Notes under the pieces: model-generated | The model's input: the letters and a program-made list of their open reading frames with translations, nothing else | Told to the model about the DNA's origin: nothing | Databases searched by the model: none | Program-made: the position numbers and the translations under genes | Assembly: GCA_964016885.1 (NCBI GenBank) | Contig: OZ024765.1 | Coordinates: forward strand, 16,926,001-16,990,000 | Direction: 5' to 3' | DNA: 64,000 nt | From: Eledone cirrhosa | Lineage: Eukaryota | Shown here: piece by piece, positions 1-59,812 of the stretch | Layout: each line of letters begins with the position of its first letter | Position numbering within the stretch: the first letter of the stretch is position 1

Positions 1-895
1 AATAATCTCTTTGTTCATTCCATGTTTAGTCTCACAAAATATTGTTAATGCAAGATTTTGCTCTAATGTAATAAATGTTACTTTTAAAAGCCCGAAGTTC
101 TCAATTTTCTTCTTTCTCTTGTATATTGATATCTAAAGGATGACAAATGTATGAATTATGTGGTAGGGAGGAAAAAGCCACGACCTTCTTCTCTCGTTAC
201 AGAAGGCTAACTGACAACGTCTTTCGCAGGAGTGACTAGTACTACTGCCTTTTATATACCGTGACAACTGTAAAGACGTGACAAATAAGGATACACTCTG
301 CTCTCCTTATCAACATTGTCCGAGTCTGAAGACCTTTCCTCCCTGGTTAAGGAGTGAGATAACATATTAGGGATCAATCTCTAGCAATAATTTCATTAAA
401 TCATATTTAACCAGAGACTGTTATGTCGTGGTTGTTGCTATATTTTATAGTCGTGGTTTCAATGTTTAACAGGGCTTGTAGAATTAGCTTTATCTAATTA
501 TTATCAAACAAAACAGATTTATATATTGTCGCCGTTGTACGTTAAAATCGCATATATATTTATATACACACCAAGGATGGAGGGACGACGGAATTGAAAA
601 CCATTATTGCTGAGTACATCACGGCAAGATCTAATACACACACACTCTCCCGTATATATTTAATAATCAGCTATGACCATGAAGAAGGTCCCTGTAGATC
701 ATCTGGTTGTAGGATCTAATGAACCCGAAAGAAAGTGAAAATATATTTTATGAAAGCCCCAGAAGAATAAATGTAAACATTGACCCGATTATAGTAGAAA
801 TAACAATGAGAAAGCCATGAACGCCAGCACATCTATTTTGCTTGGAAATTAAAAGTAGGTTTATAAATATTAATTTTTTCTTATGTTCTTGTATC

Positions 896-980
896 TGTTT
901 GGTAGGTGTTAGAGACTATGTAGACACTGATGTGGTGTTCAATCTCAGTCCGAATCTGTACTATATATTTTTAAATTTAA
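896..980 (+). ncRNA. Degenerate tRNA-like Pol III gene D (copies ~5462-5546, ~10043-10127)
   Basis: Shared upstream AAAGTAGGTTTATAAATATTAATTTT (TATAAA 862-867), truncated A box, B-box-like GTTCAATCTC 937-946, T-run ~976-982. Confidence 0.35.
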
Positions 981-998
981 ATTTTTCTCTAGTAAAGT

Positions 999-1093
999 AA
1001 AAAATGAAATTATTATCTATAGACTTTGACTGAGATCGAAACCCAGAGCAGGTTCTCCACCGTGTCTAATACCTACCATTAGGACACGGAGAC
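999..1093 (-). ncRNA. tRNA-like Pol III gene C (copies ~5565-5659, ~10146-10240)
   Basis: Minus strand GTCTCCG-TGTCCTAATGG (TGGCCTAATGG in units 2/3) at +8, TTTCGA at +53, TATAAA at about -30, T6 downstream. Confidence 0.5.
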
Positions 1094-1157
1094 AGATATA
1101 AAAACAGTGTGAAAATTAATATTTATAAAGTTACTTTTTTATTTTTGTTTTATACTA

Positions 1158-1246
1158 TAAAAAATATAATACAACACACTGCCAGTGATCGAACCCCGGA
1201 CCTGGACCTCCACCGGCTCATATACTTACCACTAGGCTAAAGGGAC
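1158..1246 (-). ncRNA. tRNA-like Pol III gene A (copies ~5724-5812, ~10305-10393)
   Basis: Minus strand GTCCCTT-TAGCCTAGTGG (A box +8), GTTCGATC (G at +53), TATAAA at -29..-34, T6 terminator; no full cloverleaf. Confidence 0.6.
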
Positions 1247-1296
1247 GGTTACAGAAACTCACTGAAAATTGATATTTATAAACCTACTTTTTCATT

Positions 1297-1470
1297 ACTA
1301 GAAAAAACCGGAAGTGGAGAAAATTGAAAAACATCTTCTTTTTCTTCCTCTGATTTTTTTTTAATCCAAAATTTGGATTTAAGTCAGAGACGAGTTATCG
1401 TTCGTGGCGAAAATCAGAGGAAGAAAAAGAAGAAGTTTTTCAATTTTCTCCACTTCCGGTTTTTTCTAGT
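1297..1470. promoter_or_regulatory. 61-bp inverted repeat (1297-1357 / 1410-1470) with ETS-type CCGGAAGT in each arm, between divergent genes A and B
   Basis: Arms are reverse complements with one mismatch; CCGGAAGT 1308-1315, ACTTCCGG 1452-1459; present in every unit. Regulatory role is inferred. Confidence 0.6.
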
Positions 1471-1511
1471 ATAGGTAAGTAAATATTAATTTTCAAAAAA
1501 TTTTTGTTACC

Positions 1512-1584
1512 GTCCCTGTGGCCTAATGGTAAGCACTAGAGACGGTGGAGATCCTGATTTAGGGTTCGATTTCCGTTAGGTTTT
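1512..1584 (+). ncRNA. tRNA-like Pol III gene B (copies ~6078-6150, ~10659-10731)
   Basis: GTCCCTG-TGGCCTAATGG (A box 1519-1529, +8), GGTTCGATTTCC (G1564 = +53), TTTT 1581-1584. Confidence 0.6.
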
Positions 1585-3924
1585 ATACTAATAACTGCGT
1601 ACTTGTTTCTTTTATTAAGTAAGATTTGAACTAATAATGCTGTACTTTGTAGTAATATCCCATATTATATTCAACATATTTTAATTAAAATTTATTTTTT
1701 TTATAAAAGAAAGAACAAAAAACCTTATTGAAATTAAGAAATGAATTTTATTCAGTAAAGTTGTTTTTATTTTGTTTTCACTTCATTAACTGCTGAATAC
1801 GTCTTTTGTTTTTGTTTTTGATTCTTTCTAACCATTGTTTACTGTGAATGGTGACTGCAACGAACCTGGATTATTACCAAGTTTCACTGGATGATTGTAT
1901 TATTTTGTTGTCAGTGGACATCTGGACATCTATCTAAATACCTGGAATAAACACAAGGTGTGTGTTTTACGTAACATTTCATTTTAATGTCTGATGTTCC
2001 TGTATTTCACATTTAAAATGTAACCAAAAATAAACAAGACAGGGACGCTACATCAAAATAAACCACACAGACGAGGTACGAATAATCTAAAATTAATTTT
2101 AACAAACTATAAACGATGTTTAAAGAGAGACGAACATTAAAATAGGATTTCAAACAAACACGTAAACACAAAGACAATTACAGCCGCCATAATCTAATAT
2201 CTGAAGATCAACATTTTTCACGATAGAAATAAAACTAAATAAGTAAAGTTTAGTGGCCCCTGATTTACTTGTTTTAATTTCATTTTGATAATCTGTATTC
2301 TGTAGACATATATTTATGATTTTAATGATGAAATTTCCTCTTGTCTTTAAAAGATTATTACTTATAAAAATTATAATAGTCACCTCCTCCTCTCGATTAA
2401 TATATAGCATCATTCGAGGTAGCTTACCCACAGGGGTTCCTCAACTGGGCGGTTTCAACTGTTGGGTGGGCGATGAGCAGCTGAACAGAAAATTGAGGGC
2501 CATTGGAAACTTTGGTGGCCGATATAGAATTTTGAGATTTAAGAAGGTATGCTACCCGAAAACCTATTCAAGGAATATATGCAAAGAACCTGAATAAATA
2601 TCAGGAAGCTAATTGGGAAAATTAAACCAGGAACAAACATTTACGAAACATATTTGGTATACTTTGGAATATTTACTATACAGGTGGCTGGTGGAACATT
2701 TTTTCATGTGAAAGTGGGAAATGACGCCAAAATATTTGGCAACCCTTGGCTCACACCTTACTAAATGTTCTGGAGACAAGCCTCTTCGCTATATATCATA
2801 GTTCTTCAATCCTTCATCTTCCACAGTTGGTGAAGTATTTCGATTTGATATGACGATCGCAGAGTTAGATTTAGGACGTGGTGGCGTTCATGGGTTTCTT
2901 AGTGTTGTTACTAGAAAGGGTCGACTCTGTCTTTCACACTTCAGGTTTTTTCATGAATTAAATATCCATTTTCTTTCTGATCGGTCTAACAATGATTTGA
3001 ACCTACAATGACTCCGTCTGTAATAATGTTCTCTTATTTGAAATATGCCATACCTAACTCCCGTGTCTGTGTGTGTGAAAAATATTCCAACTTAGAGCGA
3101 CGTGCCCGTAAATTATTTAGCCTGATTCCTATATATAGATAATGTGTAATATTTGAACCTTCATGGAGGGTCTTTGCCGTAATTTCCCGTAACTCCGACT
3201 AGAAGTCATTATGTAGTTTTTTCGTCCGTTAAAAATAATGATTAAAACAATTCTATATCCACAGTTATATACACCTCTTCATCACATATTATATTATTTC
3301 CACCAATAACTACATTATATCCTTAAATATGACACCAAGACATATAATTTGTAAATAAAAGATAAAATATTAAAACCTCAATTTTTAAATAATTTTACCC
3401 CACCTTTGTGTTCTCAGTGTTTAGATTAACCCATAATTTTATGATTTTGGAGCATATAACTTATAGTACCAGTCATGTACTGGGATCAATTTAACGGATT
3501 GGTTCCTCCCGGCAAATTACTTGACTTTTGCCTAAGTAAGACATACTCACAAAATGTATCGATGTATATGTATGAATGTATATATATATTAGTATATTTT
3601 ATGTTTACAATAAAAATAGACAAACAATTTAATGATATGCAATGAAATTATTATTATTTATTAATAATATTTTTATTGTTTTCACTGCATTAACTTCTGA
3701 GTGACTTTTATTTTCTACTGTAAATGGCGGCTTAATTGGATTATTACTAAGGTTTACTGGATTGTGGTGTTTCTTTATTGTTTTATATTTCAATCAGTGG
3801 ACATCAGGATAGCTTTCTATATACCTGGAATAAATGTAAACAGTACTGACTTTCATCTGCAGTTCAATGGTGATGTCTTCTTATATTTTCATTTACTTCT
3901 GCAATACTGTATATTGTAGTCTTT

Positions 3925-4365
3925 TCATTATTTTAAATATTTCTATCATGTCACTCGTTTGATATATCTCACCGAAAGATATAGTTATTCAGAGCTTTAC
4001 ATTGGAATAGTGTACTACTATTTAAATATTAGTCCTTTAAATATATATTTCTATCATGTCCCCCCCCCCCCCCCTCTTAGATTTATCTCCTCTAAATTTG
4101 CAATCCCTAAAGTTTAACATCTTTCTTCAGAAGACAGATTTCTTAATAATTCTGGTGTTTTCTGTTTTGTTCTTTTCTGGATTCCTTCAATAGCTTCTCC
4201 GTATTTTCTGAAGTCGTCTGACCATGCCCCAAAACAATATTCTAGGTCGTATCACACATATCATTCAACTAGTGTTTTAGACCTCTCGACATTTAGCTAG
4301 GCAAAGGAATGTTTTATTATTCCTATCATCTGAATTCCTTTTTTTTCTTCAACATGTTTAGCCAT
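3925..4365 (-). mobile_element. Decayed CR1-group LINE ORF2 C-terminal fragment (copies ~8505-8945, ~13086-13526)
   Basis: Minus translation MIGIIKHSFA*..DLEYCFGAWSDDFRKYGEAIEGIQKR..LRNLSSEER..LEEINLRG/DMIEIFKIM matches the CR1 post-RT pattern MLG.I.RSF..VRP.LEY..AWSP..LE.VQRR..L.YEERL..RRLRGD.IE.FKI. Confidence 0.8.
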
Positions 4366-7300
4366 CTTTAAAATCATATTCATACATATTCACAATTCCT
4401 CGTGGAGGGGTATAAGAGACATGTATAAATATAGCTGCATATTACTACAAAATAACTTGAACCATATCGCGAAACATTTTGTAAAGTATCTCTGTAATTA
4501 TTCTCATTTCGATTTTCTGTAGAATGTATTGACGTTTAAGATAGAGACAATTGCCCTTCTTCTAATAATCTCTTTGTCCATTCCATGTTTTAGTCTCACA
4601 AAATATTGTTAATGCAAGATTTTGCTCTAATGTAATAAATGTTACTTTTAAAAGACCGAAGTTCTCAATTTTCTTCTTTCTCTTGTATATTGATATCTAA
4701 AGGATGACAAATGTATGAATTATGTGATAGGGAGGAAAAAAAGCCACGACCTTCTTCTCTCGTTACAGAAGGCTAACTGACAACGTCTTTCGCAGGAGTG
4801 ACTAGTACTGCTGCCTTTTATATACCGTGACAACTGGAAAGACGTGACAAATAAGGATACACTCTGCTCTCCTTATCAACATTGTCCGAGTCTGAGGACC
4901 TTTTCTCCCTGGTTAAGGAGTGAGATAAAATATTAGGGATCAATCTCTAGCAATAATTTCATTAAATCATATTTAACCAGAGACTGTTATGTCGTGGTTG
5001 TTGCTATATTTTATAGTCGTGGTTTCAATGTTTAACAGGGCTTGTAGAATTAGCTTTATCTAATTATTATCAAACAAAACAGATTTATATATTGTCGCCG
5101 TTGTACGTTAAAATCACATATATATTTATATACACACCAAGGATGGAGGGACGACGGAATTGAAAACCATTATTGCTGAGTACATCACGGCAAGATCTAA
5201 TACACACACACTCTCCCGTATATATTTAATAATCAGCTATGACCATGAAGAAGGTCCCTGTAGATCATCTGGTTGTAGGATCTAATGAACCCGAAAGAAA
5301 GTGAAAATATATTTTATGAAAGCCCCAGAAGAATAAATGTAAACATTGACCCGATTATAGTAGAAATAACAATGAGAAAGCCATGAACGCCAGCACATCT
5401 ATTTTGCTTGGAAATTAAAAGTAGGTTTATAAATATTAATTTTTTCTTATGTTCTTGTATCTGTTTGGTAGGTGTTAGAGACTATGTAGACACTGATGTG
5501 GTGTTCAATCTCAGTCCGAATCTGTACTATATATTTTTAAATTTAAATTTTTCTCTAGTAAAGTAAAAAATGAAATTATTATCTATAGACTTTGACTGAA
5601 ATCGAAACCCAGAGCAGGTTCTCCACCGTCTCTAATACCTACCATTAGGCCACGGAGACAGATATAAAAACAGTGTGAAAATTAATATTTATAAAGTTAC
5701 TTTTTTATTTTTGTTTTATACTATAAAAAATATAATACTACACACTGCCAGTGATTGAACCCCGGACCTGGACCTCCACCGGCTCATATACTTACCACTA
5801 GGCTAAAGGGACGGTTACAGAAACTTACTTAAAAATTGATATTTATAAACCTACTTTTTCATTACTAGAAAAAACCGGAAGTGGAGAAAATTGAAAAACA
5901 TCTTCTTTTTCTTCCTCTGATTTTTTTTTATCCAAAATTTGGATTTAAGTCAGAGACGAGTTATCGTTCGTGGCAAAAATCAGAGGAAGAAAAAGAAGAA
6001 GTTTTTCAATTTTCTCCACTTCCGGTTTTTTCTAGTATAGGTAAGTAAATATTAATTTTCAAAAAATTTTTGTAACCGTCCCTGTGGCCTAATGGTAAGC
6101 ACTAGAGACGGTGGAGATCCTGATTTAGAGTTCGATTTCCGTTAGGTTTTATACTAATAACTGCGTATTTGTTTCTTTTATTAAGTAAGATTTGAACTAA
6201 TAATGCTGTACTTTGTAGTAATGTCCCATATTATATTCAACATATTTTAATTAAAATTTATTTTTTTTATAAAAGAAAGAACAAAAAACCTTATTGAAAT
6301 TAAGAAATGAATTTTATTCAGTAAAGTTGTTTTTATTTTGTTTTCACTTCATTAACTGCTGAATACGTCTTTTGTTTTTGTTTTTGATTCTTTCAAGAAC
6401 CATTGTTTACTGTGAATGGTGACTGCAACGAACCTGGATTATTACCAAGTTTCACTGGATGATTGTATTATTTTGTTGTCAGTGGACATCTGGACATCTA
6501 TCTAAATACCTGGAATAAACACAAGGTGTGTGTTTTACGTAACATTTCATTTTAATGTCTGATGTTCCTGTATTTCACATTTAAAATGTAACCAAAAATA
6601 AACAAGACAGGGACGCTACATCAAAATAAACCACACAGACGAGGTACGAATAATCTAAAATTAATTTTAACAAACTATAAACGATGTTTAAAGAGAGACG
6701 AACATTAAAATAGGATTTCAAACAAACACGTAAACACAAAGACAATTACAGCCGCCATAATCTAATATCTGAAGATCAACATTTTTCACGATAGAAATAA
6801 AACTAAATAAGTAAAGTTTAGTGGCCCCTGATTTACTTGTTTTAATTTCATTTTGATAATCTGTATTCTGTAGACATATATTTATGATTTTAATGATGAA
6901 ATTTCCTCTTGTCTTTAAAAGATTATTACTTATAAAAATTATAATAGTCACCTCCTCCTCTCGATTAATATATAGCATCATTCGAGGTAGCTTACCCACA
7001 GGGGTTCCTCAACTGGGCGGTTTCAACTGTTGGGTGGGCGATGAGCAGCTGAACAGAAAATTGAGGGCCATTGGAAACTTTGGTGGCCGATATAGAATTT
7101 TGAGATTTAAGAAGGTATGCTACCCGAAAACCTATTCAAGGAATATATGCAAAGAACCTGAATAAATATCAGGAAGCTAATTGGGAAAATTAAACCAGGA
7201 ACAAACATTTACGAAACATATTTGGTATACTTTGGAATATTTACTATACAGGTGGCTGGTGGAACATTTTTTCATGTGAAAGTGGGAAATGACGCCAAAA

Positions 7301-10300
7301 TATTTGGCAACCCTTGGCTCACACCTTACTAAATGTTCTGGAGACAAGCCTCTTCGCTATATATCATAGTTCTTCAATCCTTCATCTTCCACAGTTGGTG
7401 AAGTATTTCGATTTGATATGACGATCGCAGAGTTAGATTTAGGACGTGGTGGCGTTCATGGATTTCTTAGTGTTGTTACTAGAAAGGGTCGACTCTGTCT
7501 TTCACACTTCAGGTTTTTTCATGAATTAAATATCCATTTTCTTTCTGATCGGTCTAACAATGATTTGAACCTACAATGACTCCGTCTGTAATAATGTTCT
7601 CTTATTTGAAATATGCCATACCTAACTCCCGTGTCTGTGTGTGTGAAAAATATTCCAACTTAGAGCGACGTGCCCGTAAATTATTTAGCCTGATTCCTAT
7701 ATATAGATAATGTGTAATATTTGAACCTTCATGGAGGGTCTTTGCCGTAATTTCCCGTAACTCCGACTAGAAGTCATTATGTAGTTTTTTCGTCCGTTAA
7801 AAATAATGATTAAAACAATTCTATATCCACAGTTATATACACCTCTTCATCACATATTATATTATTTCCACCAATAACTACATTATATCCTTAAATATGA
7901 CACCAAGACATATAATTTGTAAATAAAAGATAAAATATTAAAACCTCAATTTTTAAATAATTTTACCCCACCTTTGTGTTCTCAGTGTTTAGATTAACCC
8001 ATAATTTTATGATTTTGGAGCATATAACTTATAGTACCAGTCATGTACTGGGATCAATTTAACGGATTGGTTCCTCCCCGCAAATTACTTGACTTTTGCC
8101 TAAGTAAGACATACTCACAGAATGTATCGATGTATATGTATGAATGTATATATATATTAGTATATTTTATGTTTACAATAAAAATAGACAAACAATTTAA
8201 TGATAATATGAAATGAAATTATTATTATTTATTAATAATATTTTTATTGTTTTCACTGCATTAACTTCTGAGTGTGACTTTGTTTTTCTTACTATTTTCT
8301 ACTGTAAATGGCGGCTTAATTGGATTATTACTAAGGTTTACTGGATTGTGGTGTTTCTTTATTGTTTTATATTTCAATCAGTGGACATCAGGATAGCTTT
8401 CTATATACCTGGGATAAATGTAAACAGTACTGACTTTCATCTGCAGTTCAATGGTGATGTCTTCTTATATTTTCATTTACTTCTGCAATACTGTATATTG
8501 TAGTCTTTTCATTATTTTAAATATTTCTATCATGTCACTCGTTTGATATATCTCCCCGAAAGATATAGTTATTCAGAGTTTTACATTGGAATAGTGTACT
8601 ACTATTTAAATATTAGTCCTTTAAATATATATTTCTATCATGTCCCCCCCACCCTCTTAGATTTATCTCCTCTAAATTTGCAATCCCTAAAGTTTAACAT
8701 CTTTCTTCAGAAGACAGATTTCTTAATAATTCTGGTGTTTTCTGTTTTGTTCTTTTCTGGATTCCTTCAATAGCTTCTCCGTATTTTCTGAAGTCGTCTG
8801 ACCATGCCCCAAAACAATATTCTAGGTCGTATCACACATATCATTCAACTAGTGTTTTAGACCTCTCGACATTTAGCTAGGCAAAGGAATGTTTTATTAT
8901 TCCTATCATCTGAATTCCTTTTTTTTCTTCAACATGTTTAGCCATCTTTAAAATCATATTCATACATATTCACAATTCCTCGTGGAGGGGTATAAGAGAC
9001 ATGTATAAATATAGCTGCATATTACTACAAAATAACTTGAACCATATCGCGAAACATTTTGTAAAGTATCTCTGTAATTATTCTCATTTCGATTTTCTGT
9101 AGAATGTATTGACGTTTAAGATAGAGACAATTGCCCTTCTTCTAATAATCTCTTTGTCCATTCCATGTTTTAGTCTCACAAAATATTGTTAATGCAAGAT
9201 TTTGCTCTAATGTAATAAATGTTACTTTTAAAAGACCGAAGTTCTCAATTTTCTTCTTTCTCTTGTATATTGATATCTAAAGGATGACAAATGTATGAAT
9301 TATGTGATAGGGAGGAAAAAAAAGCCACGACCTTCTTCTCTCGTTACAGAAGGCTAACTGACAACGTCTTTCGCAGGAGTGACTAGTACTGCTGCCTTTT
9401 ATATACCGTGACAACTGGAAAGACGTGACAAATAAGGATACACTCTGCTCTCCTTATCAACATTGTCCGAGTCTGAGGACCTTTTCTCCCTGGTTAAGGA
9501 GTGAGATAAAATATTAGGGATCAATCTCTAGCAATAATTTCATTAAATCATATTTAACCAGAGACTGTTATGTCGTGGTTGTTGCTATATTTTATAGTCG
9601 TGGTTTCAATGTTTAACAGGGGTTGTAGAATTAGCTTTATCTAATTATTATCAAACAAAACAGATTTATATATTGTCGCCGTTGTACGTTAAAATCACAT
9701 ATATATTTATATACACACCAAGGATGGAGGGACGACGGAATTGAAAACCATTATTGCTGAGTACATCACGGCAAGATCTAATACACACACACTCTCCCGT
9801 ATATATTTAATAATCAGCTATGACCATGAAGAAGGTCCCTGTAGATCATCTGGTTGTAGGATCTAATGAACCCGAAAGAAAGTGAAAATATATTTTATGA
9901 AAGCCCCAGAAGAATAAATGTAAACATTGACCCGATTATAGTAGAAATAACAATGAGAAAGCCATGAACGCCAGCACATCTATTTTGCTTGGAAATTAAA
10001 AGTAGGTTTATAAATATTAATTTTTTCTTATGTTCTTGTATCTGTTTGGTAGGTGTTAGAGACTATGTAGACACTGATGTGGTGTTCAATCTCAGTCCGA
10101 ATCTGTACTATATATTTTTAAATTTAAATTTTTCTCTAGTAAAGTAAAAAATGAAATTATTATCTATAGACTTTGACTGAAATCGAAACCCAGAGCAGGT
10201 TCTCCACCGTCTCTAATACCTACCATTAGGCCACGGAGACAGATATAAAAACAGTGTGAAAATTAATATTTATAAAGTTACTTTTTTATTTTTGTTTTAT

Positions 10301-13300
10301 ACTATAAAAAATATAATACTACACACTGCCAGTGATTGAACCCCGGACCTGGACCTCCACCGGCTCATATACTTACCACTAGGCTAAAGGGACGGTTACA
10401 GAAACTTACTTAAAAATTGATATTTATAAACCTACTTTTTCATTACTAGAAAAAACCGGAAGTGGAGAAAATTGAAAAACATCTTCTTTTTCTTCCTCTG
10501 ATTTTTTTTTATCCAAAATTTGGATTTAAGTCAGAGACGAGTTATCGTTCGTGGCAAAAATCAGAGGAAGAAAAAGAAGAAGTTTTTCAATTTTCTCCAC
10601 TTCCGGTTTTTTCTAGTATAGGTAAGTAAATATTAATTTTCAAAAAATTTTTGTAACCGTCCCTGTGGCCTAATGGTAAGCACTAGAGACGGTGGAGATC
10701 CTGATTTAGAGTTCGATTTCCGTTAGGTTTTATACTAATAACTGCGTATTTGTTTCTTTTATTAAGTAAGATTTGAACTAATAATGCTGTACTTTGTAGT
10801 AATGTCCCATATTATATTCAACATATTTTAATTAAAATTTATTTTTTTTATAAAAGAAAGAACAAAAAACCTTATTGAAATTAAGAAATGAATTTTATTC
10901 AGTAAAGTTGTTTTTATTTTGTTTTCACTTCATTAACTGCTGAATACGTCTTTTGTTTTTGTTTTTGATTCTTTCAAGAACCATTGTTTACTGTGAATGG
11001 TGACTGCAACGAACCTGGATTATTACCAAGTTTCACTGGATGATTGTATTATTTTGTTGTCAGTGGACATCTGGACATCTATCTAAATACCTGGAATAAA
11101 CACAAGGTGTGTGTTTTACGTAACATTTCATTTTAATGTCTGATGTTCCTGTATTTCACATTTAAAATGTAACCAAAAATAAACAAGACAGGGACGCTAC
11201 ATCAAAATAAACCACACAGACGAGGTACGAATAATCTAAAATTAATTTTAACAAACTATAAACGATGTTTAAAGAGAGACGAACATTAAAATAGGATTTC
11301 AAACAAACACGTAAACACAAAGACAATTACAGCCGCCATAATCTAATATCTGAAGATCAACATTTTTCACGATAGAAATAAAACTAAATAAGTAAAGTTT
11401 AGTGGCCCCTGATTTACTTGTTTTAATTTCATTTTGATAATCTGTATTCTGTAGACATATATTTATGATTTTAATGATGAAATTTCCTCTTGTCTTTAAA
11501 AGATTATTACTTATAAAAATTATAATAGTCACCTCCTCCTCTCGATTAATATATAGCATCATTCGAGGTAGCTTACCCACAGGGGTTCCTCAACTGGGCG
11601 GTTTCAACTGTTGGGTGGGCGATGAGCAGCTGAACAGAAAATTGAGGGCCATTGGAAACTTTGGTGGCCGATATAGAATTTTGAGATTTAAGAAGGTATG
11701 CTACCCGAAAACCTATTCAAGGAATATATGCAAAGAACCTGAATAAATATCAGGAAGCTAATTGGGAAAATTAAACCAGGAACAAACATTTACGAAACAT
11801 ATTTGGTATACTTTGGAATATTTACTATACAGGTGGCTGGTGGAACATTTTTTCATGTGAAAGTGGGAAATGACGCCAAAATATTTGGCAACCCTTGGCT
11901 CACACCTTACTAAATGTTCTGGAGACAAGCCTCTTCGCTATATATCATAGTTCTTCAATCCTTCATCTTCCACAGTTGGTGAAGTATTTCGATTTGATAT
12001 GACGATCGCAGAGTTAGATTTAGGACGTGGTGGCGTTCATGGGTTTCTTAGTGTTGTTACTAGAAAGGGTCGACTCTGTCTTTCACACTTCAGGTTTTTT
12101 CATGAATTAAATATCCATTTTCTTTCTGATCGGTCTAACAATGATTTGAACCTACAATGACTCCGTCTGTAATAATGTTCTCTTATTTGAAATATGCCAT
12201 ACCTAACTCCCGTGTCTGTGTGTGTGAAAAATATTCCAACTTAGAGCGACGTGCCCGTAAATTATTTAGCCTGATTCCTATATATAGATAATGTGTAATA
12301 TTTGAACCTTCATGGAGGGTCTTTGCCGTAATTTCCCGTAACTCCGACTAGAAGTCATTATGTAGTTTTTTCGTCCGTTAAAAATAATGATTAAAACAAT
12401 TCTATATCCACAGTTATATACACCTCTTCATCACATATTATATTATTTCCACCAATAACTACATTATATCCTTAAATATGACACCAAGACATATAATTTG
12501 TAAATAAAAGATAAAATATTAAAACCTCAATTTTTAAATAATTTTACCCCACCTTTGTGTTCTCAGTGTTTAGATTAACCCATAATTTTATGATTTTGGA
12601 GCATATAACTTATAGTACCAGTCATGTACTGGGATCAATTTAACGGATTGGTTCCTCCCCGCAAATTACTTGACTTTTGCCTAAGTAAGACATACTCACA
12701 GAATGTATCGATGTATATGTATGAATGTATATATATATTAGTATATTTTATGTTTACAATAAAAATAGACAAACAATTTAATGATAATATGAAATGAAAT
12801 TATTATTATTTATTAATAATATTTTTATTGTTTTCACTGCATTAACTTCTGAGTGTGACTTTGTTTTTCTTACTATTTTCTACTGTAAATGGCGGCTTAA
12901 TTGGATTATTACTAAGGTTTACTGGATTGTGGTGTTTCTTTATTGTTTTATATTTCAATCAGTGGACATCAGGATAGCTTTCTATATACCTGGGATAAAT
13001 GTAAACAGTACTGACTTTCATCTGCAGTTCAATGGTGATGTCTTCTTATATTTTCATTTACTTCTGCAATACTGTATATTGTAGTCTTTTCATTATTTTA
13101 AATATTTCTATCATGTCACTCGTTTGATATATCTCCCCGAAAGATATAGTTATTCAGAGTTTTACATTGGAATAGTGTACTACTATTTAAATATTAGTCC
13201 TTTAAATATATATTTCTATCATGTCCCCCCCACCCTCTTAGATTTATCTCCTCTAAATTTGCAATCCCTAAAGTTTAACATCTTTCTTCAGAAGACAGAT

Positions 13301-14057
13301 TTCTTAATAATTCTGGTGTTTTCTGTTTTGTTCTTTTCTGGATTCCTTCAATAGCTTCTCCGTATTTTCTGAAGTCGTCTGACCATGCCCCAAAACAATA
13401 TTCTAGGTCGTATCACACATATCATTCAACTAGTGTTTTAGACCTCTCGACATTTAGCTAGGCAAAGGAATGTTTTATTATTCCCATCATCTGAATTCCT
13501 TTTTTTTCTTCAACATGTTTAGCCATCTTTAAAATCATATTCATACATATTCACAATTCCTCGTGGAGGGGTATAAGAGACATGTATAAATATAGCTGCA
13601 TATTACTACAAAATAACTTGAACCATATCGCGAAACATTTTGTAAAGTATCTCTGTAATTATTCTCATTTCGATTTTCTGTAGAATGTATTGACGTTTAA
13701 GATAGAGACAATTGCCCTTCTTCTAATAATCTCTTTGTTCATTCCATGTTTAGTCTCACAAAATATTGTTAATGCAAGATTTTGCTCTAATGTAATAAAT
13801 GTTACTTTTAAAAGCCCGAAGTTCTCAATTTTCTTCTTTCTCTTGTATATTGATATCTAAAGGATGACAAATGTATGAATTATGTGGTAGGGAGGAAAAA
13901 GCCACGACCTTCTTCTCTCGTTACAGAAGGCTAACTGACAACGTCTTTCGCAGGAGTGACTAGTACTACTGCCTTTTATATACCGTGACAACTGTAAAGA
14001 CGTGACAAATAAGGATACACTCTGCTCTCCTTATCAACATTGTCCGAGTCTGAAGAC

Positions 14058-31219: not shown

Positions 31220-33050
31220 TAGTTATAGCGAACTTAACTACACAGCCACTCCTGTGGTTATAGCGAACTTAACCTCACAGCCACGCCTGTAGTTATAGCG
31301 AACTTAACCTCACAGCCACTCCTGGGGTTACAGAGAACTTAACCTCACAGCCACTCCTGTGTTTATAGCGAATTTAACCTCACAGCCACTCCTGTGTTTA
31401 TAGCGAATTTAACCACACAGCCAATCCTGTATTTATAGCGAACTTAACCTCACAGCCACTCCTGGGGTTATAGAGAACTTAACCTCACAGTCAATCCTGT
31501 GGTTATAGCGAACTTAACCTCACAGCCACTCCTGTAGTTATAGCGAACTTAACCTCACAGCCACTCCTGTAGTTATAGCGAACTTAACCTCACAGCCACT
31601 CCTGGGGTTATAGAGAACTTAACCTCACAGCCACTCCTGTGTTTATAGCGAATTTAACCACACAGCCACTCCTGTAGTTATAGAGAACTTAACCTCACAG
31701 CCAATCCTGCGGTTATAACGAACTTAACCTCACAGCCACTCCTGTGTTTATAGCGAACTTAACCAGACAGGCACTCCTGTAGTTATAGAGGACTTAACTT
31801 CACAGCCAATCCTGTGGTTATAACGAACTTAATCTCACAGCCACTCCTGGAGTTATAGAGAACTTAACCTCACAGCCACTCCTGTAGTTATAGCGAACTT
31901 AACCACACCCACTCCCGTGGTTATAGAGAACTTAACCTCACAGCCCTGCCAGTGGTTATAGCGAACTTAACCACACCGACACTCCTGTTGTTATAACGAA
32001 CTTAACCTTACAACCCTGCTAGTGGTTATAGAGAACTTAACAACACAGCCAGGCCTATGGTTATAGCGAATCTAACTACACAGCGGTATTCAAGTCTAGA
32101 GCGATCTCCTTAACCGCACATATGTATCTACAGTAATAGCGAACTCCTTAACTACACAAACATGGCTTCATCAATAGCGAATTGCCTAACCATATAACCA
32201 CAACTGTAGCTTCAGTGAATTCCTTAAAAACGTTGCCTTGTCTGCCCCTATTACGAATTCTTACACCACACAGCCACTTCTGCATCTATAGCGAAATCCT
32301 TAACTACACGGCGTCAATTGTATTTTGTATTTGCATGGTCCCATAACTCCTGGTGGAATTGTAGGGTCAATGTATTGACATGCGGCCTTTCTTGGGTACT
32401 TTAAAACCTGGCAGAGCTCATCCCTCTCCAGGTCGAACACAGCAGATATTTTCCCAGAGAGATAGAGAGTTAGAGAGAGAGTGTTAGAGAGAGATAGAGA
32501 GTTAGAGAGAGAGATAGAGCGGGGGGGGGGGTACATCGACCCTAGAACAAGTAATAATACATTTTTTTATAGACCTCGAAAGGATGAAAGGCAAAGTTGA
32601 CCTCGACGGGATTTGAACTCAGAAAACAGAGAGCAGTAATGAATACCGCAAAGCATTCTAGCTGACATTCCAACGAATCTGTTAATTCACCTTGATCTGC
32701 GTCTATAGAAAACTCTTTAATCACACAACAATACCTCCGCATATAGAGACTTCCTTAACTATAAAGTCATACCTGCGTTTATGGCCAACCCGTTAACCAC
32801 ACAGCCACGCCTGTGACCACGGCGAACTGCTTGATCACATATCTACGCCTGTGACCATAGGCGAACTGTTTAACTACAGAGCCACGTCAGTGATTATAGC
32901 GAAGTTAACCACAACAGCCCCCACCTGTGGCCATAGCGAACTGCTTAACCATACGGCCACGACTGTTGCCATAGCGAACTGTTTAACTATAACAGCCCCG
33001 CCTGTTGCCATAGCGAACTTAACTACAACAGCCCCGCCTGTGTCTGTAGA
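31220..33050. repeat. 35-bp minisatellite GTTATAGCGAACTTAACCTCACAGCCACTCCTGT; homogeneous to ~32070, then diverged and interrupted
   Basis: ~24 similar copies then decayed copies; a SINE is inserted at ~32540-32690. Confidence 0.9.
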
Positions 33051-36039: not shown

Positions 36040-39000
36040 CGCTCTTCAGTCACCAATGACTATGTAATTTCCACCTAGAAAGTTCCCCTCTGAGGCACAA
36101 GTCCGGACAAGGTTGTTTGTGGGAGACCATCAGTCTCCTATGTATACTAGTCTCACCTCTACAGGACACCGATGTTGTCCAAGGGAAAGGCAATTGCTGA
36201 TACACCTTGGTACCAGTAATATCACAATTTACAATATATACACGATATATACTCAAGATATACACTCTATACTGTATATATACACGATATATACTCAAGA
36301 TATACACTCTATACTGTATATATACACGATATATACTCAAGATATACACTCTATACTCTACATATACACTCTATACTCTATATATACACTATATTCTCAA
36401 CATATACACACTATACTCAATATATACACTATATACTCTATATATATACACTATATTCTCAACATATACACTATATACTCTATATATACACTCCATATTC
36501 TAAATACATACACTCTATACTCTATATATACACTATATCCTCAACATATACATTATATACTCTATATATACACTCTATACTCAAGATATATATTATACTC
36601 TATATATACACTCTATACTCAAGATATACATTATACTCTATATATACACTATATAGTCAATATATACACTCTATACACTATATATACACTCTATACTCAA
36701 TATATACACTCTATACTGTATATATACACGATATATACTCAAGATATACACTCTATACTCTACATATACACTCTATACTCTACATATACACTCTATACTC
36801 TATATATACACTATATACTCTATACTCAAAATATACACTCTATACTCTATATATACACTATATTCTCAACATATACACTCTATACTCAATATATACACTA
36901 TATACTCAACACATACATTATACTCTATATATACACTATATAGTCAATATATATACTCTATACACTATATATGATGTTGTCCAAGTGAAAGACAATGACT
37001 GATACAGCTTGGTAACAGTAACATCACAACATATAATATATACACTATATATACAATATATATACAATATATATAATATATACACTATATATGATGTTGT
37101 CCAAGTGAAAGACAATGGCTGATACAGCTTGGTAACAGTAACATCACAACATATAATATATACACTATATATACAATATATATACAATATATATAATATA
37201 TACACTATATATGATGTTGTCCAAGTGAAAGACAATGGCTGATACAGCTTGGTAACAGTAACATCACAACATATAATATATACACTATATATACAATATA
37301 TATACAATATATATAATATATACACTATATATGATGTTGTCCAAGTGAAAGTCAATGACTGATACAGCTTGGCACCAGTGACATCACAACATATATGTAA
37401 TATATACACTATATATACACTATATATACATTATATATACAATATATATGTAGTTGTCCAAGGGAAAGGCAATGACTGATACAGCTTGGCACCAGTGACA
37501 TCACAACTATATATGTAATATATACACTATATATACACTATACATGTACTTTATATATACACTATATATACACTATATATACATTATATATACACTATAT
37601 ATGATGTTGTCCAAGTGAAAGACAATGGCCGATACAGCTTGGCACCAGTGACATCACAACATATATGTCATATATACACTATATATACACTATATATACA
37701 TTATATATACACTATATATGTAGTTGTCCAAGGTATAGACAATGGCTGATACAGCTTGGCACCAGTGACATCACAACATATATGTCATATATACACTATA
37801 TATACACTATATATACATTATATATACACTATATGTGTAGTTGTCCAAGGTATAGACAATGGCCGATACAGCTTGGCACCAGTGACATCACAACATATAT
37901 GTCATATATACACTATATATACACTATACATACATTATATATACACTATATATGTAGTTGTCCAAGGTATAGACAATGGCTGATACAGCTTGGCACCAGT
38001 GACATCACAACATATATGTAATATATACACTATATATACACTATACATACATTATATATACACTATATGTGTAGTTGTCCAAGGTATAGACAATGGCCGA
38101 TACAGCTTGGCACCAGTGACGTCACAACATATATGTAATATATACACTATATATACACTATATATACATTATATATACACTATATGTGTAGTTGTCCAAG
38201 GTATAGACAATGGCTGATACAGCTTGGCACCAGTGACATCACAACATATATGTCATATATACACTATATATACACTATATATACACTATATATACACTAT
38301 ATATGTAGTTGTCCAAGGTATAGACAATGGCTGATACAGCTTGGCACCAGTGACGTCACAACATATATGTAATATATACACTATATATACACTATACATG
38401 TACTTTATATATACACTATATATACACTATATATACACTATATATACACTATATATGTAGTTGTCCAAGGTATAGACAATGGCTGATACAGCTTGGCACC
38501 AGTGACATCACAACATATATGTCATATATACACTATATATACACTATATATACACTATATATAGTATATATACACTATATATGATGTTGTCTAATGGAAA
38601 GACAATGGCTGATACAGCTTGGCACCAGTGACATCACAACATATATGTCATATATACACTATATATACACTATATATACACTATATATAGTATATATACA
38701 CTATATATGATGTTGTCTAATGGAAAGACAATGGCTGATACAGCTTGGCACCAGTGACGTCACAACATATATGTCATATATACACTATATATACACTATA
38801 TATACACTATATATACACTATATATACACTATATATGATGTTGTCTAATGGAAAGACAATGGCTGATACAGCTTGGCACCAGTGACGTCACAACATATAT
38901 GTCATATATACACTATATATACACTATATATACACTATATATACACTATATATACACTATATATACAATATATATACAATATATATGTAGTTGTCCAAGG

Positions 39001-39287
39001 GAAAGGCAATGGCTGATACAGCTTGGCACCAGTGACGTCACAACATATATGTCATATATACACTATATATACACTATATATACACTATATATGATGTTGT
39101 CCAAGGGAAAGGCAATGGCTGATACAGCTTGGCACCAATGACGTCACAACTCATTTTTACAGCTGAGTAAACTGGAGCAACGTGAAATAAAGTGTCTTGC
39201 TCAAGGACACAACACATCACCCGGTCTGAGAGTTGAACTCACAACCTTCCGATTGCAAGGCCAATGCTCTAACCACTAAGCCATGCG
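36040..39287 (-). mobile_element. CORE-type tRNA SINE (family S2) split by an internal minisatellite expansion
   Basis: Head and CORE-like domain (GTGTCCTTGAGCAAGACACTT) at 39150-39287, 3' part at 36040-36228; the ~55-bp segment between them is repeated ~19 times with TA spacers. Confidence 0.85.
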
Positions 39288-58862: not shown

Positions 58863-59812
58863 CTAAGTCTAAAGCCTGTCTCGAGCGCGGAGCTCATCAG
58901 GCCGGTGCTTCTCAAGGTTGGTTTCAGTGGCGTCAAACGACTGAGAGTACAACACTCCACCCAAGATAGGACGACATTCCATCTCATATTATTTTCGGGG
59001 TCGATAAAATAAAGTACCAGTAATACACTGGGTAATTGCTGGACTTGTGCCTAACGTAGAAACGATTATTTTCAGCTGAGTTGACTGGAGCAACGTAAGA
59101 TGAAGTGTTTTGCTCAAGTACACAACACACAACCCAGTACAGGAATCGAACACACGACATTACGGTCGTAAGTCTAGCACCTTAACCACTGGAACAACGT
59201 AAAATGAAGTAATTTTCTCAAGAACACAACACACAACCCAGTACAAGAATCGAACACACGACATTAAGGTCGTAAGTCCAACACCTTAACCACTGGAACA
59301 ACTTAAAATGAAGTAATTTTCTCAAGAACACAACACACAACCCAGTACAGGAATCGAACACACGACATTACGGTCGTAAGCCAACACCTTAACCACTGGA
59401 ACAACGTAAAATGAAGTAATTTTCTCAAGAACACAACACACAACCCAGTACAGGAATCGAACACATGACATTACGGTCGTAAGTCTAGCACCTTAACCAC
59501 TGGAACAACGTAAAATGAAGTAATTTTCTCAAGAACACAACACACAACCCAGTACAGGAATCGAACACACGACATTACAGTCGTAAGTCTAGCACCTTAA
59601 CCACTGGAACAACGTAAAATGAAGTAATTTTCTCAAGAACACAACACACAACCCAGTACAGGAATCGAACACACGACATTACGGTCGTAAGTCTAGCACC
59701 TTAACCACTGGAACAACGTAAAATGAAGTAATTTTCTCAAGAACACAACACACAACCCAGTACAGGAATCGAACACACGACATTATGGTCGTAAGCCTAG
59801 CCATGTCCCTTC
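58863..59812 (-). mobile_element. CORE-type SINE with its head amplified ~7 times as a ~104-bp tandem repeat (59087-59800) and an S1 fragment inserted
   Basis: Unit on minus strand carries CAGTGGTTAAGGTG..GTTCGATTCC..GTGTTCTTGAG. Confidence 0.8.

Follow-up and report, generated by a model that had tools for sequence, protein, structure and literature searches.

The window (the whole stretch of DNA analysed, 64,000 nt) begins with a tandem array, 1..14057, of ~4.58-kb units, three complete plus one 333-bp start; the units are 98.6–99.3% identical to one another and the array runs into a 200-N gap. The units carry a cassette of four homologous elements in the order and on the strands given by the first-pass annotation, D(+), C(-), A(-), B(+), which align over about -45 to +75, and its statement that the cassette is amplified in every macrosatellite unit holds for 3/3 complete units. 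The features are as follows.

860..877, + strand, upstream motif of element D, TATAAA plus AATTTT (exact match)
897..972, + strand, element D, +1 at 897, T5 at 968-972, B box with two consensus mismatches
999..1093, - strand, element C, +1 at 1093, A box 1086-1076, B box 1042-1032, T6 at 1004-999
1112..1129, - strand, upstream motif of C (exact match)
1159..1246, - strand, element A, +1 at 1246, A box 1239-1229 (matches the consensus), B box 1195-1185 (C61A)
1164-1159, - strand, terminator of element A, T6
1265..1282, - strand, upstream motif of A (exact match)
1296..1471, no strand assigned, central inverted repeat, flanked back to back by the promoters of A and B
1476..1493, + strand, upstream motif of B, TATA altered (from alignment)
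1512..1584, + strand, element B, +1 at 1512, A box 1519-1529 (matches the consensus), B box 1563-1573 (C61T), T4 at 1581-1584
5426..6150, no strand assigned, unit 2 cassette, +1 at 5463, 5659, 5812 and 6078 (alignment, motif match)
10007..10731, no strand assigned, unit 3 cassette, +1 at 10044, 10240, 10393 and 10659 (alignment, motif match)

The upstream motif that the elements had been said to share is an 18-bp AT-rich sequence with TATAAA at -34..-29 in A, C and D and an altered form in B. A search of the 64 kb returned nine matches, all exact (A, C and D in three units), where 0.18 are expected by chance and nine were reached in 0/100 shuffles; the motif of B is not among the matches when two mismatches are allowed. 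The A box begins at +8 and the B-box G lies at +53, ungapped, in A, B and C, which is the tRNA spacing originally noted. A, B and C2 (the C of unit 2) have no mismatch to the A-box consensus, the two A-box differences of A both being at R positions, and the G10T mismatch of C is found in the unit 1 copy and is absent from units 2 and 3. The B-box consensus base C61 is mismatched in 4/4 paralogues, with further changes at T53 in C and T52 in D; no published account of the effect of C61 loss was found in the literature searched. Element D as it stands in the window has a 12-nt deletion, present in 3/3 units, that takes out 8/11 A-box bases, and a public DNA contig from run X1 (depth 696) has 12 letters inserted behind 899 that restore this A box, so a second version of the cassette with an intact D exists in public DNA. 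Among 13 public runs listed, nine contain part of the window and none is recorded as RNA, which speaks neither for nor against expression; four of the nine were compared with the window. The elements end at T-runs, as had been proposed for A, B and C, the first of at least four T being at +83 in A (T6), +70 in B (T4) and +90 in C (T6), and that of the shortened D at +72 (T5). The complete set of A and B boxes, upstream TATA-like box and T-run is found fully in A and, for C, in C2 and C3; B has it with an altered TATA, and D only as the intact version. The sequence CGGTGGAG, earlier placed at +32..+39, is invariant in 8/8 columns among A, B and C and in 5/8 when D is added.

A and C are direct tandem repeats with a period of 153 bp that abut without an internal part, and A/B and C/D are inverted pairs. 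Homology among the elements does not begin at the transcript 5' end, as is characteristic of SINEs, and instead reaches ~45 bp upstream (28–36/45 identical pairwise); no 3' simple-repeat tail was found. The proposal of DNA-level duplication is supported by this flank homology, by the direct and inverted pairs and by low-depth public contigs in which the upstream motif is joined to element heads. The central inverted repeat has 62-bp arms (1296-1357 and 1410-1471) that are 98% complementary around a 52-bp spacer, and may be either a MITE-like insertion or a homogenised foldback centre.

Likeness of the elements to tRNAs reaches best z values of 5–6 (up to 6.3) against a panel of 71 virus-encoded tRNAs that includes no host tRNAs and lacks several isotypes. 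The best values are split among Gln, Ile, Arg and Glu, with Gln enriched by the search pattern used; B and a viral tRNA-Gln are identical in 47/75 columns, this tRNA itself having been retrieved with a pattern from B (the yardstick used for SINEs is at least 60% tRNA identity over 60 nt). A, B and C are far closer to one another (z 10–14) than to any tRNA tested, and this closeness, together with the shared non-tRNA features (the +32..+39 motif and the non-C61 base), suggests that they diverged from an ancestor that was already not a tRNA. Descent from the SINE heads of the window itself is unsupported by the profile search and by the z comparison (at most 4.2 to its four SINE heads). U33 of tRNA is invariant, and the elements have G where it is expected. 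ARAGORN calls no gene (0), Rfam gives no tRNA match at E 10, and the canonical register is 42% paired against 35–50% in slid controls, in agreement with the initial observation that the elements do not fold as cloverleaves. By these features the elements appear to be tRNA-derived but are not tRNAs, and any RNAs made from them could not act as such.

No conserved RNA structure across the paralogues passed the controls. A shifted cloverleaf drawn by eye is 68% paired (0/500 shuffles), but 402/3000 shuffles with the same register freedom equal it, and the T27-A44 double change in A that supported it is missing from the main X1 and X5 alleles (1220 A>T); it was rejected for these two reasons. A two-hairpin fold is equally stable in 81–99/500 shuffled alignments, single-sequence folds have z between -1.4 and +0.4, the consensus fold has z -1.0, and the covariation term is unfavourable. 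A stem of positions 1-7 with 66-72 has 14/24 cells paired, which 490/3000 column shuffles equal, and sliding by -1 gives 15/24.

At gathering scores Rfam gave nothing. At E 10 (A, B, C2 and the whole unit) the vault RNA family was unmatched, and the matches obtained were treated as chance: hairpin models fell on the central inverted repeat, and ST7-OT3_4 matched weakly (E 0.44–8). The upstream-plus-A-box pattern had 0 metagenome matches and the internal pattern 0 viral ones; four metagenome matches of the latter cover only 13 model positions (E 0.49) and were rejected, and the best phage blastn match among the best 20 of 72 (E 0.2) is chance. The description of the family as undescribed thus stands as far as Rfam and the literature searched are concerned, and that literature yielded no lineage-specific macrosatellite-amplified Pol III RNA from cephalopods or molluscs.

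The comparison with vault RNA and EBER genes drawn in the first-pass annotation is weak. Such genes do share internal A and B boxes plus upstream elements with the cassette (PMC7058938), but they are without a canonical TATA and have CREB/ATF sites near -50 (PMC7279448); the elements have TATA at the tRNA-gene position, a fixed tRNA A–B spacing and no significant 5'/3' stem, they are without a variable central domain, and no CRE-like element was noticed near -50. Distant vault RNAs can evade homology search (PMC7058938). The rodent 4.5SH/4.5SI and primate snaR genes are closer analogues, taken as a kind of gene and not as sequence families. 4.5SH genes occur in hundreds of copies in 4–5-kb tandem units, with A and B boxes and a TATA-like box as in the cassette elements (PMC7279448), and 4.5SI is related to tRNA/B2 (PMC10137851). 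The snaR genes, SINE-derived and transcribed by Pol III, form tandem arrays of diverged subsets that arose through segmental duplication (PMC3045588), much as the cassette was multiplied by DNA-level tandem duplication. Where 4.5SH or 4.5SI has a single gene, each unit here has four divergent paralogues on both strands, with a canonical TATAAA and a B box without C61. The 4.5SH/4.5SI product is a Pol III RNA of ~95 nt known from few taxa, a likeness to the RNAs predicted here; snaR is derived from Alu/7SL, expressed and protein-bound, whereas the cassette is a tRNA-derived candidate.

Among A, B and C, conservation is 0.88 in the A box, 0.89 in the B core and 0.93 over -28..-19, against 0.46–0.69 in the spacers, and the literature-defined promoter columns are invariant in 21/28 cases versus 49/92 other columns (Fisher p 0.032); these and the following statistics come from three or four paralogues only and are borderline. 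When the promoter mask is shifted, the observed 17/22 inside the element body is reached by 2/75 shifts; the shift test over the whole region gives 16/120. The best 18-column window in A, C and D has 17/18 (297–348 of 20000 permutations), the omission of B having been decided post hoc on data already seen; this test is not significant with all four (2571/20000) or with A, B and C (7687/20000), and runs tests were null. The upstream motif has variant sites at 0/72 positions and the adjoining spacer at 10/72 (p 0.001, or 0.028 once neighbouring sites are counted as one), counting differences among the window's units and those contig differences that were listed, in which 80% likeness may mix paralogues. 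Among the same listed sites the A and B boxes overall are not depleted (5/80 vs 15/280), and 3/5 of theirs are at the degenerate positions R15, R57 and Y60. No distant homologue was found for a further conservation test. The better preservation of promoter positions than of spacers gives modest support to selection on transcription.

We give about an even chance to the explanation that the elements are a lineage-specific, DNA-duplicated, tRNA-derived family of Pol III transcription units that is competent for transcription. The ancestor would have been a single tRNA-like sequence, either a tRNA gene or the head of a SINE, that carried an AT-rich 5' flank and was copied at the DNA level, both directly and inverted, as a ~150-bp unit; the resulting four-gene cassette would afterwards have been amplified within the 4.58-kb macrosatellite. 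Transcription and its start sites, as predicted from sequence, would depend on TFIIIC bound to the internal A and B boxes and on TBP/TFIIIB bound to the TATAAA at -34..-29, which would offset the B box without C61; Pol III would start a few bases before +1 and stop at the T-run. A, B and C, together with any D that has kept its A box, are predicted to yield unprocessed oligo-U RNAs of 75–95 nt. That the cassette makes a functional RNA is unlikely. Since the promoter is apparently kept and the fold is not, the likeliest role would lie either in an abundant, short-lived array transcript comparable to 4.5SH and snaR or in the Pol III complex assembled on the array.

It is somewhat unlikely that the elements are decaying tRNA or tRNA-like pseudogenes that were locally duplicated and are carried passively by the macrosatellite among old repeat fragments, silent or transcribed as noise. 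With clustered tRNA genes and pseudogenes they share the A box at +8, the B box at +53, the T-run terminator and the exact tRNA spacing, and their TATA at -34..-29 lies where it is found in those tRNA genes that have one (PMC3082873), although animal tRNA genes rarely do (PMC7279448). The 68% four-arm pairing with three double changes is close to the 70–75% and two to three expected after neutral decay from a paired ancestor, D and C1 carry lesions, C61 is lost, and divergence between units is no lower in the cassette, which has 12/46 difference events in 16% of unit length and thus not fewer than the rest. Decay accounts poorly for conservation that is uneven and centred on promoter elements, and for the greater mutual closeness of the copies than their closeness to the viral tRNA panel.

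Quite unlikely is an origin as source genes or heads of a SINE-like family, in which the elements would be transcription-competent masters of a simple retroposon of tRNA origin scattered through the rest of the genome, a status that would account for the retained 5' flank. Simple SINEs of head plus tail exist (PMC3531059), and SINE pieces build minisatellites in other parts of the window. Summed depth in run X1 is 9888 in the bin over the head of B (1518-1568) against 906–1093 alongside, and two low-depth contigs carry 55-bp repeats of the B-head set end to end; the depth excess comes from the single run X1, as the bin is outside the coverage of run X5, and run X8 was left out because it gave nothing but identical 151-nt pieces and chance matches rich in AT. 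Against such masters, the copies seen are tandem, where a SINE is marked by at least 100 interspersed ones: nhmmer had no match at E 10 in window 14258-64000, the other 50 kb, and a covariance-model search gave nothing below E 0.4 beyond the 12 known copies. No contig end starts at +1 among the 24 of 188 listed, and no SINE body, tail repeat or target-site duplication was seen around the elements. TRNA-derived SINEs and Helenus TRIMs likewise have degenerate tRNA-like sequence in which A and B boxes are kept, and in Helenus the 5' flank is present because the tRNA-like part lies inside an LTR (PMC10886601); unlike these, the cassette copies are local, tandem and inverted, and inspection by eye saw neither paired direct LTRs with PBS/PPT nor the 4-bp target-site duplication of Helenus.

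A role at the DNA level only, in which a cluster of TFIIIC/TFIIIB sites with a foldback serves as a chromatin boundary or as a replication or recombination feature and the RNA is irrelevant, is very unlikely. In its favour, barrier activity of tDNA/TFIIIC is established, promoter columns are kept and the fold is not, and four promoters in both orientations surround a 98% inverted repeat; against it, terminator T-runs lie behind each element, and TFIIIC binding alone is not known to need a TATA.

A fuller form of the Pol III transcription-unit family is more doubtful than its bare competence for transcription, and we consider it improbable. The family would be expressed, with a tRNA ancestor refolded into two hairpins, at least four paralogues, macrosatellite dosage and back-to-back promoters that share a foldback control element, and would be an invertebrate (probably cephalopod) counterpart of 4.5SH/snaR, possibly acting on the SINE transcripts of this genome. 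Lineage-specific macrosatellite-amplified Pol III RNAs are known from rodents and apes. If transcribed, the cassette would be an invertebrate case that escapes ARAGORN and Rfam, and it would show by natural example whether a B box off the consensus can be compensated by a canonical TATA; should it be silent, it would be an ordinary case of satellite-borne tRNA-like relics. We note that 21 stop-to-stop frames of 50–101 aa are listed in positions 1-4600.

The four paralogous elements of the cassette (850..1590) lie in the order and orientation D(+), C(-), A(-), B(+), as the first-pass annotation described them, and can be aligned from about -45 to +75, where +1 is the tRNA-equivalent first base.

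Features of the cassette (+1 positions from the alignment)
897, + strand: +1 of element D
1093, - strand: +1 of element C
1246, - strand: +1 of element A
1512, + strand: +1 of element B
1296-1471: central inverted repeat

A and C form a direct tandem with a period of 153, and A/B and C/D are inverted pairs. The cassette does occur in every macrosatellite unit, for a covariance model of A, B and C recovers 12 copies in the three units of the 64 kb (D at E 0.0006); outside these known copies the same model gives no match below E 0.4 in the 64 kb. The 18-bp upstream motif, with its TATAAA at -34..-29, the TATA location in those tRNA genes that have one (in the accessible part of PMC3082873), occurs nine times against 0.18 expected. 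The claimed T-run ends are also present, starting at +83 (A), +70 (B), +90 (C) and +72 (D, a shortened copy). By the consensus given in PMC7279448, A boxes free of mismatches occur in A, B and unit-2 C; that of unit-1 C has one mismatch, and that of D is mostly deleted. All four B boxes lack the consensus C61; that of C further carries T53 and that of D T52. Two changes private to unit-1 C, at 1064 and 1084 (+30 and +10), are minority alleles in the public DNA sequencing run X1; jointly they extend a 5' hairpin, yet disrupt the A box, and may represent a template-switch mutation.

ARAGORN finds no tRNAs, and the Rfam search that had been proposed gives no match at gathering scores and nothing relevant at E 10. 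Global alignment of the elements to 71 distinct virus-encoded tRNAs from 11 loci, a panel from which several isotypes are absent, gives z up to 6.3, divided among Gln, Ile, Arg and Glu (the Gln rank is biased, since these tRNAs were fetched by a B-derived pattern); z is at most 4.2 against four SINE heads of the window, and 10-14 among A, B and C themselves. By these values the elements are tRNA-derived, with an isotype not fixed by the viral panel, and descend from one ancestor that already carried non-tRNA features.

TFIIIC bound at A/B boxes positions TFIIIB upstream, and output rises where a TATA-like box precedes the gene (PMC7279448). By this scheme TFIIIC on the internal boxes would place TFIIIB upstream of the elements, the TATAAA would compensate for the imperfect B box, and A, B, C and an intact D would yield 75-95-nt oligo-U transcripts. 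Judged from sequence, the chances are about even that the elements constitute a transcription-competent Pol III family. In the accessible parts of the sources, the closest working likeness is to rodent 4.5SH/4.5SI, which have A and B boxes plus a TATA-like box (PMC7279448, PMC10137851), the 4.5SH genes lying, like the cassette, in 4-5-kb tandem units (PMC7279448); snaR, with its segmental duplication and tandem arrays, is likewise close in manner (PMC3045588). Membership of either family is not claimed for the cassette. The construction had been likened to vault RNA and EBER, but these fit less well than 4.5SH/4.5SI and snaR (accessible parts of PMC7279448, PMC7058938). Vault candidates have reportedly been identified in two lophotrochozoan lineages (PMC2770079, in part), and C. 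elegans miRNAs have Pol III A/B-box leaders (PMC12487709, in part). No description of the family is found in the full-text literature searched, most subscription papers and repeat libraries being beyond that scope, and as far as this search goes the macrosatellite cassette, a real feature that is tRNA-derived and of Pol III type, is apparently undescribed. The first-pass proposal of an undescribed multicopy Pol III ncRNA family thus holds as to description, and its transcription stays a prediction. If expressed, the cassette is a further case of a known kind of Pol III gene; if not, it is an ordinary relic.

That the elements are passive pseudogenes is the less likely but still serious alternative, and conservation bears on it. 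When A, B and C are compared pairwise, the A box reaches an identity of 0.88 and the B core one of 0.89; the segment -28..-19 reaches 0.93 and +32..+39 1.00, versus 0.46-0.69 in spacers. With promoter positions taken from literature definitions, 21/28 of these columns are invariant versus 49/92 of the others (p 0.032); a mask-shift test gives 2/75 within the body and 16/120 across the whole region. For the best 18-column window, significance is reached with A, C and D (~0.015), and not with all four elements or with A, B and C; runs tests on paralogue conservation are null. Among 25 variant sites pooled from unit-to-unit and public contig differences, the upstream motif has 0/72 versus 10/72 in the adjoining spacer (p 0.001; 0.028 with adjacent sites merged), and the A/B boxes 5/80, three of them on degenerate positions. 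The signs of promoter constraint agree in direction but are weak.

No conserved fold is demonstrated. Single folds of 10 sequences are no stabler than shuffles (z -1.4 to +0.4), and the canonical cloverleaf, with 42% of cells paired, resembles slid controls, in agreement with the earlier statement that the elements do not fold as cloverleaves. The consensus fold from RNAalifold has two hairpins, but its covariation term is unfavourable and it is not supported, since shuffling the alignment gives equal stability in 81-99 of 500 cases. A by-eye cloverleaf in a shifted register (68% paired) was rejected as evidence: given equal freedom, 402 of 3000 column shuffles match it, and a paired ancestor decaying neutrally arrives at 70-75% pairing and 2-3 double changes.

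Parts of the stretch are found in 9 public runs (5 studies, 6 organism labels), four of which were compared at 80% likeness, all sequences seen being close relatives. Eight of the X1 contigs listed cover the stretch as a tiling path; seven of them have depths of 760-1165, against 3.5-33 for contigs at joints. These depths, which do not equal copy number, hint at a large array. One X1 contig (depth 696) has a 12-letter insertion behind 899 that makes the D A box identical to that of B, and both X1 and a second run, X7, hold a diverged form of D's far upstream region, so the cassette exists in a second version. The upstream motif is also linked to element heads in contigs of low depth, which would fit additional paralogues keeping the flank. 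A third run, X5, spans 868-1427 in contigs of 189, 155 and 245 nt with 3, 4 and 10 other letters, and X7 spans B in a single 276-nt contig with 8, the 7 listed ones all outside the body. A SINE source is improbable, although the reading is kept alive by a summed X1 depth of 9888 in the bin over B's head and by two low-depth X1 contigs that bear a B-like head (1512-1556) twice running, 10 or 16 letters apart, which suggests a putative 55-bp head minisatellite elsewhere; none of the SINE criteria in the accessible part of PMC3531059, nor of the Helenus features in that of PMC10886601, is established for the elements. A role at the DNA level only is the most doubtful reading.

The central inverted repeat (62 bp, 98% complementary) lies between A and B, whose surrounding arms are ~75% alike. 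Both its ends read TA-CTAG, and each arm contains CCGGAAGTG, which we take to be an ETS-type motif; the arms have a depth of 9000-11000 in X1, to which simple-repeat contigs may contribute.

Window bases 1-14,057 are a tandem array of three complete ~4.58-kb units plus the initial 333 bases of another, running up to a 200-N gap. The units are 98.6-99.3% identical, with 46 difference events in their alignment, units 2 and 3 being almost the same. The partial fourth unit (13725-14057) is 100% identical to 1-333 of unit 1, units 2 and 3 differing there at several sites, which may reflect either higher-order organisation of the array or a join made in assembly. Beyond the array the window is AT-rich with many microsatellites and SINE pieces, and minisatellites made from SINE-like repeat pieces lie at 31222-33042, 36927-39150 and 59069-59784 (periods 35-39, ~117-126 and ~104 bp). 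Each unit also contains a second old duplicated element (66% identity; 1676-1951 and 3586-3850 in unit 1), without a match in Rfam, with a common hairpin near 1881-1920 and 3752-3802 followed by ACA (fold z -0.6 and -2.3); X1 contigs hold variant versions of it. Finally, 2428-2750 is likely an old DNA transposon remnant within the unit, its ends by eye resembling what we take to be hAT/Charlie-type terminal inverted repeats.
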